Part shown: positions 35,022 through 42,202 of the stretch, piece after piece
How positions within the stretch are numbered: the first letter of the stretch is position 1
Layout: the number at the start of each line of letters is the position of its first letter
NCBI GenBank assembly: GCA_963708295.1
Contig: CAVPSJ010000017.1
Span: 384,001 to 448,000, forward strand
DNA: 64,000 nt
Source: an uncultured delta proteobacterium
GTDB lineage: Bacteria > Desulfobacterota > BSN033 > UBA1163
Direction of reading: 5' to 3'
The notes under the pieces: generated by a model
Told to the model about the DNA's origin: nothing
Database searches by the model: none
Seen by the model: the letters and a program-made list of their open reading frames with translations, nothing else
Made by a program: the position numbers and the translations under genes

Positions 35022-35447
35022 TTAGGCAATTCCCGGTGGCTTGCGGCGTCTCTTCTCGGCTACCTTCAGTCTGGCTAAAGAGCGGCGCAAGGAGGCTTCA
35101 GCAGATGCAGCCTCAGCGGTCAGAGGCGCAGCCTTCATCGTTTCCTGAGCACGCTTCTTGGCTTCCTCCGCGCGAGCAATATCAATTTCATCAGCCCGTT
35201 CACAGGCGTCGGCCAGGATAATTACTTTGTCAGGACGCACTTCGAGGAAGCCGCCACTGATCACAACATATTCTTCTTCCTTATCCTTTCGGATCATTAA
35301 ATCGCCGGGCTGCAGCATGGTCATCAGAGGCGCATGATGAGGAAGAATGGCCAGTTGCCCCTCTACTCCCCAAGCGATGACCGCGCTTACATCCTCAGAG
35401 AAAATCATTCTCTCTGCAGTGACGATTTCTAATCTGAAGGTTGCCAC
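35022..35447 (-). CDS. atpC: ATP synthase F1 epsilon
   Basis: [23 protein letters not shown]. Confidence 0.96.
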
Positions 35448-35449
35448 AA

Positions 35450-36841
35450 TTACCCTTTCATCGCTTTGGCCTTTTCCACGGCCTCGTCAATCGTGCCAAC
35501 AAGATAAAACGCGCCCTCAGGAAGGTCGTCGTGTTTTCCGTCTAAGATTTCCTTAAAGCCCCTTACGGTTTCCTTGATGGGGACGTACCTGCCCGGAGTC
35601 CCGGTAAATTGTTCAGCCACATGAAAGGGCTGAGAACAAAATCTCTGAATCTTTCTGGCCCTTGCTACGGTAAGCTTGTCTTCTTGACTCAATTCTTCGA
35701 TACCCAGAATAGCGATGATATCCTGTAATTCCCTGTATCTCTGCAGGGTTGCCTGAACTCCCCGAGCGACCTGATAATGTTCCTCACCGACAATGAGAGG
35801 GTCGAGGATTCGAGAAGTGGAAGCGAGCGGATCGACAGCCGGGTAAATCCCCAACTCGGCAATCGATCGCTCCAAAGCCACCACGGCATCAAGATGACCG
35901 TAAGTCGCTACAATACCCGGATCACTGTAATCATCGGCTGGCACATAGATCGCTTGGAAAGAGGTGATGGATCCTTTTTTCGTCGTGGTAATTCTTTCCT
36001 CCAATTCACCCACATCCGTTCCCAGAGTGGGCTGATAACCGACGGCGGATGGCATGCGTCCCAGAAGGGCCGACAGTTCCATATTCGCCAGAACGTAGCG
36101 ATAGATGTTATCGACGAAGAGAAGCACATCCTGGCCTTCGATATCACGGAAATATTCTGCGACCGTTACTCCGGTCAGGGCCACACGGGAGCGAACGCCC
36201 GGGGTTTCGTTCATCTGACCGAAGACCATCACCGTTTTATCCATGACTCCGGATCTTTTCATCTCCAACCACAAGTCATTGCCTTCCCGCGATCTTTCGC
36301 CCACACCCGCAAAGACAGAGAAACCTCCATGCTCAGCGGCAATATTTCGAATGAGCTCCATAATAATGACGGTTTTGCCCACCCCGGCGCCGCCATAAGC
36401 ACCAATCTTACCACCTCTTGTGAATGGAGTGATGAGGTCCATCACCTTCAGGCCGGTCTCGAGCATTTGAGGAACCGTCTCCTGCTCTGTAAGGGGTGGG
36501 GGTGAACGATGAATCGGCCATCTCTGATCGGTTTTCACCTCACCCAGCCCATCGATTGCTTCGCCAAAGACATTGAACAACCTCCCCAGGGTTGCGCGTC
36601 CTACAGGCACCGAGATGGGAGTTCCCATGTCAATGGCTTCGACTCCCCTTGCCAACCCATCCGTGGGAGTCAAAGCAACGCCCCGCACCCAATTGTTGCC
36701 GATATGAGCCTGTACCTCCACAATGATTTTCGACTCTTTCAGGGGAATGACAATGCCGTTATAGATGGCCGGCAACTCATTCTGAGGAAATTCCATATCG
36801 ACCACGGTTCCGATCACTTGTACGACTTTCCCTTTTGCCAT
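35450..36841 (-). CDS. atpD: ATP synthase F1 beta
   Basis: [31 protein letters not shown]. Confidence 0.98.
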
Positions 36842-36863
36842 CTTTTGCTCCTCGAAAATTTGT

Positions 36864-36909
36864 AATCCCCCTTTCTCCCCCCTTTGGAAAAGGAAGGGTG
36901 GGGAGGATT
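36864..36909. repeat. REP-like palindrome between atpG and atpD
   Basis: AATCCCCCTTTCTCCCCCCTTTGGAAAAGGAAGGGTGGGGAGGATT, same style as 3214-3287. Confidence 0.55.
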
Positions 36910-37769
36910 TATGTGGTTAAGGCTTCAGCCCCTCCGCTGATATCACAGATCTCTTTGGTGATCATCTCCTGTCTCACTTTGTTCAATGATAATTTTAGAT
37001 CTTTGATGAGATCCTCCGCATTGTCGCCCGCGTTTCTCATCGCTACCATCCGGGCGGATTGTTCACTGGCAATGAGCTCAAGAACCGAGTGATAAACCTC
37101 CATCTCTACGAACCGGGGCAACAATTCGTTCAAAACTGAAAAAGGATCAGGTTCATAAATATATTCCGCCACCTGTCCAGGAGGGAGCTTTCCTGGTTCA
37201 ATCGGAAGCAGTGCTTGTATCGTGGGCTTCTGGACCATGGTACTGATAAAGTCGGGATAGGCAAGATAGACAAGATCCACCTCTCCTTTGCTATAGTCAT
37301 CGATCACGACTCGTGAAATGGGCAGGGTATCCAGCATGGTCGCCCGGTCGCCGATTCCGGAGAATTCTGCCCTCACATCCAGTTTAGCAATGCGAGCAAA
37401 CGCTCTCGCCTTGCGGCCTACCGTAAGGACTGTCACGGGCACCTTTTGCTGGAGGATGAACTCGGCCACCACCCGATTCAGGTTCGTATTTAATCCCCCA
37501 CATAATCCTCGGTCGGTGCCGATGTGGACGAGGGCAATCTTCTTCACTTCTCGTTTCTGCAATAATGGAAGAATTTTCCCCCTGATGAGAGGATCGATGG
37601 CGAGATCCGCAATCACCTGGTGTATTTTTTCCGTATAGGGCCGCCCTGCCAGCGCCCGTTGCTGGGTTCTTCGCATTTTAGCGGTTGCCACCATCTCCAT
37701 GGCACGGACGATCTTTGTGGTCCCCTGGATACTACGGATGCGGCGGCGCAGGATTTGAATGCTTGCCAT
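36909..37769 (-). CDS. atpG: ATP synthase F1 gamma
   Basis: [35 protein letters not shown]. Confidence 0.97.
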
Positions 37770-37779
37770 GATCGAACTC

Positions 37780-40467: not shown

Positions 40468-40500
40468 GATGCCCCCTTCAACGTATTTGCTAACGGTAGG

Positions 40501-40641
40501 CTAGTTCGCTTTCATATTCATAGCGATATAGGTAATCAAGCCAGCAAGAGAAAATACCGCTACGGCGACTACAATAAACAATGCTACCGCTGCTCCAATA
40601 AGCATACCCGGTAAGCTCGTGGATGACCCTTCCTGTTCCAT
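40501..40641 (-). CDS. 46-aa single-TM protein inside the atp operon (not in ORF track)
   Basis: SD AAGGAGGTG then MEQEGSSTSLPGMLIGAAVALFIVVAVAVFSLAGLITYIAMNMKAN*. Confidence 0.75.
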   Translation of the reverse strand: MEQEGSSTSLPGMLIGAAVALFIVVAVAVFSLAGLITYIAMNMKAN

Positions 40642-40727
40642 ACTTACACCTCCTTAACGGACTCCCATCGCGAGAATAATCATTGCCATCAGGACATGAA
40701 TCCTTATCGTCTCGGCCAGAGGACCCA

Positions 40728-40964
40728 TCAAAACTTGACGACCATGGCGAGAATAATGCATACGATCAGGACATAAATCCCTATCGCTTCGGCGAGCGCA
40801 CCAATTAAAATCATGTTGGTGAGAATAGCGCCCCTGGCTTCTGGGTTGCGTCCGAGGGATTGCATGGCTGAATAACCGATCAACCCCAACGCTAATGCCG
40901 GACCAAAGAACCCCAACCCTGCAGTTAAACCGACCGTTAACATTTTCATTACTTCTGGTGACAT
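40728..40964 (-). CDS. atpE: ATP synthase Fo subunit c
   Basis: GRNPEA loop; ALAEAIGIY carboxylate; lacks the Gln and Ser/Thr of the Na+ signature. Confidence 0.96.
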   Translation of the reverse strand: MSPEVMKMLTVGLTAGLGFFGPALALGLIGYSAMQSLGRNPEARGAILTNMILIGALAEAIGIYVLIVCIILAMVVKF

Positions 40965-40988
40965 TGATTAACTCCTCCTTTCATCTTT

Positions 40989-41930
40989 TTATTCTGTTTC
41001 TTCGTGTGGAGATACAGCGATTGTGCCAAATACAAGGGTTAAACCGGAAAAGATAAGAGCTTGAATCAGACCGATCAATAATTCCAACCCGTAGAAAGGG
41101 ATGCTGAATACGAGAGGAATGAGAAAACTGGAGACCAAAATCAATATCTCCCCGGCAGTCATGTTGCCAAAGAGACGGAAGGTAAAACTCAACATACGCG
41201 TCAGGTGGCTGAATATTTCCAATACGCCAACGAATAGGTTAATAAACCCGAAAACGATGTCCATCGCTCCCTGGCCTATCTTCCCCTTCAATAGTTGTTT
41301 CAGTCCTTGCCACCATCTGACGGAAATTGATGAACTCGCTGAGGTAGTGCGACACTCCCAATGCCTTCATTCCCCAGGTTTCAACGAAAATGAAAGACAT
41401 AATGGCGATGGAAAGAGGAACATTGACATCGGTATTCGCTGCGCGGAATAAAGGTGCAAATTTGCCATCGTGTTCAATGACCCCGATGGAGCCAAAAAAG
41501 GGGAAGAGAGCAAGGTAAGCGTTCGAGATGACGTAGAGGAAAATAGTCGCCACTCCAGTAAAGAGTGTCCTTGCATGTTTTTTACCGGCGACACTTTCAA
41601 CAAAATTGAGCAACCCTTCTACGATTGCCTCTGCCATGGCTTGTCGTTTGCCGGGAATAAGTTTCATCTTACGGGTGAGGATAAAAGACAAAACGACCAG
41701 CACGATGATCGTAAACCAGGAGGCAATGAGGGTATTCGTCACAGCAAAGTGACCAATATGAAACACTGGCTCCGCAGGAAGCTCCACATTGGGTTTAGGA
41801 ACCTGAAAGAAACTCGGGGTCTTCGTCCCGAAAAAACTGGTTCCCAGAGGGCCAAACACAAAACCCACGCCGAAGAGGATTAAAACAGGAATGAAGAAAA
41901 ATAGTAAGACTTTGAGCCGCTACCCTTCAT
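40989..41930 (-). CDS. atpB: ATP synthase Fo subunit a (two frameshifts)
   Basis: TNTLIASW, RAANTDVN, SFTFRLFGNMTAGE, IQALIF; ATG overlaps upstream stop (ATGA). Confidence 0.93.
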
Positions 41931-42202
41931 GATTGGCTCTGCTTCTTTTTGTTGTTGCTATTTTTTCTAAATTTTTCTTGCTCAGCCTGATAGCGGAGGA
42001 GCATTTTAATTAAACCGAAGAAAGCTACGACTGTCCCGACTCCAAGGCCAATCAAAGTGAATAACGGTTGTTTATTGAACATTTTTGGGCTGTCGAGCCA
42101 ATAACCAATCGCTACCGGGATGATCAGGCTGAGAGCCACATACCATCCAATCGTAAGCAAAAATTGAAGGGGTCTTGCCCAATCTTTCAGAGAACCCTCC
42201 AA
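41927..42202 (-). CDS. AtpZ/AtpI family protein
   Basis: Two TMs with GYWLD..PLFTLIG motif; first gene of the operon. Confidence 0.85.
   Translation of the reverse strand: MEGSLKDWARPLQFLLTIGWYVALSLIIPVAIGYWLDSPKMFNKQPLFTLIGLGVGTVVAFFGLIKMLLRYQAEQEKFRKNSNNKKKQSQS

Follow-up and report, generated by a model that had tools for sequence, protein, structure and literature searches.

The window considered here is a 64,000-nucleotide stretch of DNA, analyzed as a whole, from an uncultured delta proteobacterium, a Syntrophaceae-like wetland member of the Desulfobacterota (G000:C17:384001-448000, where G000 is the genome under study, an assembly of 4.95 Mb in 20 contigs). Lying on its minus strand, from position 35022 to position 42202, is an operon encoding an F-type ATP synthase. 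The reading that we favor, and that we regard as likely, is that this operon belongs to a cassette of ~7.7 kb (34606-42267) that is derived from the Dehalococcoidia and has been recurrently exchanged, at one chromosomal slot, with the operon native to the host's family. Operons of the kind present in the window are referred to below as type X and the native operons as type Y. All genes and elements listed as features lie on the minus strand.

The operon and its reading frames

The gene calls were made from six-frame open reading frames (ORFs) and Pfam matches over the window. They place atpZ-B-E-(46-aa ORF)-F/H-A-G-D-C downstream of rsmG-parA-parB-bactofilin, which confirms the contiguous operon proposed for this site in a first-pass annotation, and the three peptide motifs quoted in that annotation are present in the translations. 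The order is canonical, with all eight core subunits in one cluster (PF00119, PF00137, PF00430, PF00213, PF00006 twice, PF00231, and PF02823/PF00401). The first gene of the X cassette, atpZ (41927-42202), belongs to the ATPase_gene1 family (PF09527, E 3e-9), and its product is 63-79% identical in X relatives and 32-57% identical in Dehalococcoidia loci. An ATG at 41930, read directly, overlaps with the stop codon of atpZ and starts a frame of 16 codons of atpB (40989-41930), the gene for a long form of subunit a that is matched by PF00119 on two ORFs, 41239-41868 and 40989-41291. The intact homologue in genome G003 is 314 aa in length versus 250 aa in type Y. Next is atpE (40728-40964), which codes for a 78-aa subunit c (PF00137) that is 74-80% identical to those of the Dehalococcoidia loci L028, L052, and L045 and 28-31% identical to type Y. 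Just 3' of the atpE stop is a partial tandem duplicate of the 3' end of the gene (40660-40733; direct repeat D1, 74 nt, 77% identical to 40737-40810).

Positioned between atpE and atpF, where the first-pass annotation had noted a small ORF, is a 46-aa frame with a single transmembrane (TM) segment (40501-40641), preceded by the ribosome-binding-like AAGGAGG. It has positional homologues in all nine X-type family loci and in five of the six Dehalococcoidia loci examined, and a small TM ORF between c and b is a character common to X and the Dehalococcoidia. At this position L028 has a different small TM ORF, and there is none in the X-like operon of G157, a genome of another Desulfobacterota family, f16. 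Those homologues found in X-type Syntrophaceae and Dehalococcoidia operons typically start with M-E/G-x-D/G-G-L/I-P. Searches of Pfam and NCBIfam with the 46-aa ORF gave no match; it could encode an unrecognized Fo-associated small protein.

The atpF and atpH genes, taken at first to be separate, form one ORF of 353 aa in this assembly (39406-40467), with PF00430 at residues 14-143 and PF00213 at residues 181-347. Subunit b corresponds to residues 1 to ~170, and the start ATG of δ lies at 39946-39948. No second b gene was found, in agreement with the single b reported earlier. The remaining genes are atpA (37780-39288; PF00006/PF00306/PF02874), which encodes an α subunit with the P-loop GDRFTGKS; atpG (36909-37769; PF00231, E 2.4e-85), whose γ subunit is 68% identical to L028 and 38-40% identical to type Y; atpD (35450-36841; PF00006), whose β subunit is 83% identical to L028 and 60-70% identical to type Y; and atpC (35022-35447; PF02823 and PF00401), the ε gene and the last of the cassette. 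The 67-nt spacer between atpG and atpD (36842-36908) folds as a hairpin (-20.8 kcal/mol). It had been described as a host-type repeat, but it is without a second copy in the genome: its 36-nt core is single even at six mismatches, and blastn-short gives only one other 19-nt match. The spacer differs between strains, with 21 other letters in its place in one metagenome contig. The G+C content of the operon, 0.46-0.54, shows no contrast with that of the genome (~0.50).

In the G000 assembly not every subunit has an intact reading frame, whereas the frames are intact in related X loci. The atpB gene carries two +1 frameshifts, near 41900 and 41309, and is a single frame of 314 aa in relatives. 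Likewise, parB has one frameshift and is a single frame in G010, and the P-type ATPase gene of the downstream flank and the gene for the A subunit of a V-type ATPase are also split. The b and δ genes are separate in all 16 other loci and fused in G000, where the boundary reads AAGAAGAAG; in relatives it reads AAGAAAAG, followed by a stop. Short Logan contigs of four wetland/freshwater metagenomes, each of which shares 0.30-0.38 of the sampled words, were aligned to the region; no sequencing run shared as much as half of these words, the best value being 0.38. Metagenome contigs have one base fewer at 39964 (depth 34.5/62.8 for X1, 11.8/11.8 for X5, and 25.2/152.3 for X8), at 41309 (29.7/29.7 for X8 and 4.39/8.47 for X1), and, within parB, at 43473 (30/30 for X8).

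Taken at face value, the two atpB frameshifts and the b-δ fusion would describe a decaying pseudo-operon in a cell that relies instead on a V/A-type ATPase, such as the one encoded on contig C12. At 39964 some of the metagenome depth lacks the 1-nt deletion, as does the assembly (127/152 for X8), and a real fused b-δ allele is thus possible. Decay of the operon nevertheless appears unlikely. Genes as unrelated as parB, the P-type ATPase, and the V-type A subunit are broken alike, which points to systematic single-base errors; every frame break that was checked comes down to a single additional base in comparison with relatives or metagenome contigs; and the remaining subunits have unbroken frames, with 85-97% identity to their counterparts in relatives. 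The fused b-δ gene, the broken atpB, and the broken parB are most likely single-base indels of the assembly rather than biology.

As suggested in the first-pass annotation, a second, native atp set was looked for. A tblastn search of the 20-contig assembly with the subunits of the window and with type-Y subunits found no second F-type set in G000, and no remnants of a Y operon were found with Y proteins. The X enzyme thus appears to be the sole F-type ATP synthase of the cell. The one other rotary ATPase of G000 is the V/A-type enzyme on C12. Its A/B gene pair lies at G000:C12:205600-208800, with the A subunit split into two overlapping ORFs. Within the family, V/A-type ATPases occur in part of the X genomes and in part of the Y genomes, and in others none was found.

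The Walker A motif of the β subunit and the carboxylate of subunit c are essential for an enzyme of this class. Both are present in the translations, the former as GGAGVGKT and the latter within ...ALAEAIGIY.... Judging from its genes, the X operon is predicted to supply the full set of components of an F1Fo enzyme with a b2 stalk. The Na+ signature of the c subunit, as in Ilyobacter tartaricus, comprises a Gln in helix 1 and E-S/T in helix 2. In a manual alignment (RNPEA loop), the X subunit c displays Leu at the position of the helix-1 Gln and E-A-I in helix 2, and the type Y subunit is likewise without the signature. Given this lack, coupling of the X enzyme to H+ is plausible and would seem likely. 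The helix-1 sequence itself is GPALALG in X, GPGLGLG in L052 and L045, and GxGxGxGxG in Y.

Ancestry of the type X operon

All eight subunits are far closer to those of the Dehalococcoidia than to those of type Y. Amino acid sequence identities to L028 versus type Y from the same genus are 52/67% versus about 25/33% for subunit a (N-/C-terminal pieces of the split gene), 74% versus 28% for c, 58% versus 33% for b, 44% versus 29% for δ, 76% versus 62% for α, 68% versus 39% for γ, 83% versus 70% for β, and 72% versus 44% for ε. The P-loop of the α subunit agrees with this division. It reads GDRFTGKS in all 11 X and both f16 sequences, and only in Desulfobacterota copies, and GDRQTGKT in all nine Y sequences and in most other Desulfobacterota. 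In the Dehalococcoidia it is GDR[S/T/Y/A]TGK[T/S], with a residue other than Gln at the variable position, in 31 of the 32 rows where the motif was found.

Three large maximum likelihood trees were calculated (LG+C20 with posterior mean site frequencies, PMSF), for which the non-host sample came from a genome contig scan seeded with two N-terminal peptide patterns. In the α tree (125 rows), X from the host's GTDB family, designated f1, and the f16 sequences form a clade (support 100) that is sister to L028 plus L052 (96) inside the Chloroflexota (99). Type Y from f1 groups with the sister family f2 (99) and then with the Desulfobacterota families f37 and f56 (99). The γ+β+ε tree (73 rows) agrees with the α tree, with all key nodes at 100. 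In the a+c+b+δ tree (64 rows), X from f1 is sister to L052 plus L045 (99) within the Dehalococcoidia (99), and f16 lies just outside. By an approximately unbiased (AU) test (30 rows, LG+G4), a single clade of f1 (both X and Y) and f2 is rejected (delta lnL 390, p-AU 1.7e-6). The Atp proteins thus do not branch with the host lineage, the outcome that the first-pass annotation had named as contrary to its proposal. That proposal, an in situ replacement of the whole F1Fo operon by one from another phylum, is borne out by the identities and by the nesting in all three trees.

Around L028 and L052, the flanking genes are in synteny with many other loci of the Dehalococcoidia. Because the nearest Dehalococcoidia contigs listed have such flanks, the operon appears to be at home in that class, and transfer would have run from the Dehalococcoidia to the Desulfobacterota, the direction that we infer from the nesting in the trees as well. 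The first step is best envisaged as a single old transfer from a Dehalococcoidia lineage near L028, L052, and L045, among the matches listed, into this family or into the Desulfobacterota. Between G000 and G018 the α subunits are 86.2% identical versus 86.5% for RpoB, and the diversity of X within the family is of about the same depth as that of RpoB. It is this depth, together with the unremarkable G+C content, that makes the original capture look old.

Two other histories may be considered, namely an ancient paralogy, with both types long present in the Desulfobacterota and then differentially lost, or a transfer in the reverse direction from the family to the Dehalococcoidia. The X-like operon of a second Desulfobacterota family, f16, is in their favor, as is the fact that the roots of the trees were not inferred. 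Yet X from f1 together with f16 lies several nodes deep in a Dehalococcoidia radiation of >40 loci, with the Anaerolineae, Caldilineae, and Thermomicrobia outside, and the nearest Dehalococcoidia loci among the matches listed have flanks typical of that class. Furthermore, the X-type γ subunit was found in only two families: it is present in 28 of 54 f1 genomes and in none of eight f2 or five f3 genomes of the same class, and in an even sample of the phylum (401 genomes) it was found only in f1 and in f16 (the latter at 64-66% identity), with 0 of ~390 other genomes having it. Finally, differential loss of paralogs would not leave both types at one locus, and none of 51 genomes keeps both. We consider either of these histories very improbable.

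Among the matches listed, public contigs bearing X are labeled Syntrophaceae, Thermodesulfobacteriota, or Deltaproteobacteria bacterium. With respect to f16, the contig L103 (G080:C89, 9110 bp), which carries an X-like operon, has an exact 141-bp terminal overlap and can therefore be read as circular or as a tandem unit, made up of the whole operon and one or more REC-domain genes. In G157, the sister genome to that of L103, the X-like operon sits within a 267-kb contig.

Two operon types at one locus

The 55 genomes of family f1 were searched with the α subunit. There is one F-type α per genome, which is of type X in 30 of the 55 (85-97% identity) and of type Y in 21 (61-64%). No F-type α was found in the other four, and X and Y were found together in none of the 55; the match is single copy in all 51 genomes that have one. 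The types are mixed within genera, with 10 X and four Y genomes in g1 and one X and 11 Y genomes in g3. The native type Y is a complete atpZ-atpI-a-c-b-δ-α-γ-β-ε operon at the same locus as X. The accessory genes are AtpZ and the small TM protein in X, and AtpZ and AtpI in Y. The order b'-b-δ-α-γ-β-ε, which the first-pass annotation had ascribed (with atpB and atpE elsewhere) to many Desulfobacterota, is not the native state of this family; it occurs in f3 of the same class.

The upstream flank is shared by the two types. The rsmG gene (GidB; 44813-45481; PF02527, E 2.9e-45) is 54-84% identical in relatives of both. It is followed by parA (43866-44657; PF13614/PF01656), which is 82-94% identical in relatives, the best match at 94% being G035, a carrier of type Y. 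Two overlapping ORFs make up parB (43029-43890), with ParB_N on 43315-43890 and HTH_ParB and ParB_C on 43029-43487. The last conserved flank gene encodes a bactofilin (42346-42810; PF04519, E 6.8e-27); DNA homology to G035 in this region extends over 42268-42824 at 84%. The array rsmG-parA-parB-bactofilin lies upstream of the operon in each of the 12 X loci for which sufficient upstream sequence is available and in seven of the eight Y loci examined.

The same neighborhood is seen in NC10/Methylomirabilota, where rsmG-parA-parB (L101) or a bactofilin gene (L072, L092) adjoins the atp operon, and the parAB-atp neighborhood therefore seems old and widespread. Between parB and the bactofilin gene is a short element (42846-42889) with copies of 35-39 nt, 97-100% identical, on at least 10 G035 contigs. 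It shows a large depth spike and many loose ends in four metagenomes. It resembles a dispersed repeat of the host and may represent the repeat family that the earlier annotator had in mind. The segments at ~57231-57375, ~61343-61449, ~20861-20970, and ~24160-24400 also have many dispersed copies (72-95%) across G035 contigs.

The closest relative of G000, both by RpoB (97.0%) and by the flank proteins, is G035, a type Y genome whose α subunit is only 62.3% identical. DNA homology between the two ends at 34605 (95%) and restarts at 42268 (84-88%), with 7.66 kb between these edges in G000 and 7.87 kb in G035. A conserved upstream element common to X and Y genomes is located at 42268-42333, with TTGACA at 42318-42323. 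In an alignment of the bactofilin-to-atp spacer from 16 genomes (nine X and seven Y), every genome has the element and neither TTGACA nor ATGTT varies, and the G000 element is 88-91% identical to those of the Y genomes G008 and G015. A sigma-70 consensus scan gave six sites versus 7.6 expected, and the element was not among them. On the 3' side of the element the G000 leader is first Y-type (ATTGCTCCCTGATGTC) and then X-like, with the switch at ~42268. The left recombination junction can thus be assigned to the 3' edge of the element, ~42262-42268, and the Y/X mosaic leader has the appearance of a recombination scar. This mosaic and the tree, in which the order is G013 (Y) and then the pair G000 (X) and G035 (Y), suggest a switch from Y to X in the lineage of G000.

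The right junction zone (34606-35021) contains an X-type tail at 34947-35014 and then unmatched sequence, which includes a 59-nt repeat (34809-34867) and an element at 34622-34676 that is also present in G035 and G038. Beyond it, over 27812-34605, are, by their Pfam matches, a Cache/HAMP histidine kinase (32714-34582), a sigma-54 response regulator (31287-32735), and the split P-type ATPase (27812-30549). Over the kinase region, 32340-34605, DNA identity to G035 is 95%. The 59-nt sequence is one of a pair of direct repeats (86%; 27121-27179 and 34809-34867) that flank a 7.6-kb block comprising the P-type ATPase, the response regulator, and the kinase. This block is absent from G003 and G008 and occurs twice in tandem in G035, with copies 94% and 86% identical to that of G000. 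A long import tract around the operon was considered as well and is not visible; G000-G035 DNA identity is 81-94% everywhere examined. As for sequence spanning the borders, which the first-pass annotation had called for, the left junction is bridged by the metagenome contig X1 (144 nt, 42187-42333), and the right junction is bridged by none of the metagenome contig pieces among the matches listed. That the contig is not chimeric rests on the same architecture in 30 genomes, on the flank trees, and on the one bridging metagenome contig.

When the X or Y state is mapped onto a tree of RpoB (53 rows: 29 X, 17 Y, three without atp found, and four outgroup sequences; G040 was left out as its RpoB is broken), 12 changes are needed among the 46 scored genomes, at least nine of which are forced by well-supported branches. 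A second tree was built by a careful search from RsmG, ParA, ParB, and bactofilin of 18 loci, all taken from the same contigs as the operons. It requires five changes, four of them forced, and it contains two sister pairs of unlike type, G000 (X) with G035 (Y) and G059 (X) with G016 (Y), each at 100/100. Because these flank genes come from operon-bearing contigs, errors of binning cannot explain the interleaving. The X operons themselves tell of movement as well. The concatenated X operon rejects a clade of G059 and G018 (p-AU 2e-8), whereas RpoB and the flanks put G059 within g3; at least some X copies, then, moved between genera. Part of the X history may be vertical, since a monophyletic grouping of the g1 genomes G000, G003, and G010 is not rejected by the X operon (p-AU 0.085). 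Taken together, the trees point to recurrent exchange of cassettes within the family and not to one replacement. Of the replacement as originally proposed, its origin in another phylum and its in situ character thus hold, and its singularity does not, the types alternating among sister species.

It could be argued that there was only one ancient in situ replacement and that the X/Y alternation is an artifact of the binning of metagenome-assembled genomes (MAGs), of a chimeric contig, or of the RpoB tree. Most of the 55 genomes are indeed fragmented MAGs with 2-8% estimated contamination, the species tree is that of RpoB alone, and, as noted, g1 monophyly is compatible with the X operon. Such an explanation is improbable in light of the flank genes, which show the same interleaving on the very contigs that bear the operons. 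These are long contigs (597 kb, 2.97 Mb, 882 kb, 238 kb, and 252 kb), the G000-G035 homology breaks cleanly at both sides of the operon, and the G000 leader is a Y/X mosaic.

Several further points weigh against recurrent exchange of a Dehalococcoidia-derived cassette, or limit its details. The RpoB tree is without four of the 21 Y and one of the 30 X genomes, and G000 is 91% complete, which bears on the claim that it has no second copy. The three large trees came from a quick search with support only from the Shimodaira-Hasegawa-like approximate likelihood ratio test (SH-aLRT). In the F1 trees f16 is sister to X from f1 and in the Fo tree it is not, such that there may have been one entry or two. 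Outgroup sampling beyond the host phylum is biased, and a closer donor in another phylum may therefore have been missed. No plasmid vector was found, the best plasmid-borne γ being 44% identical. Note also that one Y locus of g3, L108 (G061:C9:16000-34000), has no rsmG, parAB, or bactofilin gene within 10 kb upstream.

The sequence of events favored here would be as follows. After the original transfer, both complete operons, X and Y, would have been maintained in the family, any one genome carrying either the one or the other at a single locus between the bactofilin gene and the downstream flank, and they would have been swapped between species via homologous recombination in the conserved flanks; recombination as the mechanism of exchange is what we infer. 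The conserved element immediately 5' of the first atp gene would be the site of the left crossover, which would put either cassette behind the same upstream sequence. The last switch in the lineage of G000 was probably from Y to X.

Relation to known systems and significance

The X operon shares with those of the Dehalococcoidia, of which the MAG loci L028, L052, and L045 are the nearest among the matches listed, the order atpZ-a-c-(small TM ORF)-b-δ-α-γ-β-ε, a single b gene, a long subunit a, and an α P-loop without Gln, and its α and β subunits are 72-76% and 79-83% identical to theirs, respectively. It differs from them in its location on a Desulfobacterota chromosome, where it follows parAB-bactofilin and an upstream element conserved in the host, in the GDRFTGKS form of the P-loop, and, relative to L052 and L045, in the GPALALG segment of subunit c.

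The concept of in situ xenologous displacement of a gene or operon was reportedly set out by Omelchenko et al. in Genome Biology in 2003. As in such displacements, a foreign orthologous set has replaced the resident one between conserved flanks with a single copy left, and the X operon displays the flanks of its relatives, a foreign phylogeny, and no second copy. Unlike those known, it comprises an entire rotary machine operon of about ten genes (nine ORFs as assembled) from another phylum, and neither version, native or foreign, has been lost; sister species differ in which of the two they carry, and at least 12 changes are inferred. In Thermus/Deinococcus and others, the F-type enzyme has been replaced by a horizontally acquired A/V-type ATPase. 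There, too, a horizontally acquired enzyme replaces the ATP synthase of a lineage, but that exchange is one of enzyme class and is not known to have occurred at the same locus, whereas the X swap is F for F, in situ, and recurrent.

The fusion of b and δ in this assembly recalls the mycobacterial AtpH (b/δ), which is also one polypeptide. It is distinct from the latter in that none of the 16 related loci has it and that it hinges on one additional base. The NCBIfam model for the mycobacterial type, NF009961 (subunit B/delta), gives 81 bits versus a cut-off of 328, and no separate second b gene was found. Movement of a whole F-type ATPase operon between phyla is also a feature of the N-ATPases; one article (PMC4154653) attributes that clade to horizontal transfer, in species where a canonical F1Fo enzyme is retained as well. 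Unlike the N-ATPases, which are extra copies with their own gene order and AtpQ/AtpR, the X operon has the canonical order and is the sole F-type set found. It does not follow the N-ATPase order atpDCQRBEFAG, and it scores far below the cut-offs of the "alternate F1F0" NCBIfam models (61.8 versus 302 for TIGR03306 and 36.9 versus 131 for TIGR03322; likewise for TIGR03321).

Multi-subunit machines such as the ATP synthase are usually assumed to be vertically inherited, and the usual exceptions are those in which a second enzyme is added, as with the N-ATPase, or the enzyme class is changed. Both in situ xenologous displacement and the lateral transfer of V/A-type ATPase operons are already known. 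The article cited above (PMC4154653) reports that trees of the ATP synthase follow the major lineages. A full-text literature search, supplements excluded, found no report of a Dehalococcoidia-type operon in the Syntrophaceae, no described case of alternating F-type operons at one locus, and no published in situ xenologous displacement of an F-type ATP synthase. What would set the present case apart is a like-for-like F1Fo operon from another phylum that serves as the host's only F-type enzyme, and an alternation of native and foreign operons between species whose RpoB sequences are 95-97% identical. One practical caution is that atp genes are unsuited as taxonomic markers or binning anchors in these lineages.

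The alternation amounts to a natural experiment on the interchangeability of whole energy-converting complexes and, if the mechanism favored here is correct, would show recombination at conserved flanks moving them from species to species. Why both types are retained is a matter for speculation, in which a difference between X and Y in ring size or in the ion/ATP ratio would be the explanation. A possible, if rather doubtful, extension is that X and Y are interchangeable cassettes, repeatedly swapped via homologous recombination at the shared upstream element, and that both are kept for different bioenergetic settings, for example in the c-ring stoichiometry or the H+/ATP ratio; the types do differ in the helix-1 motif of subunit c noted above and in subunit a, which is long in X and short in Y. 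In organisms thought to live near the thermodynamic limit, niche-specific selection on the ion/ATP ratio becomes testable with such pairs. If the extension were true, it would amount to a population-level "gear change" of the ATP synthase in these low-energy anaerobes.

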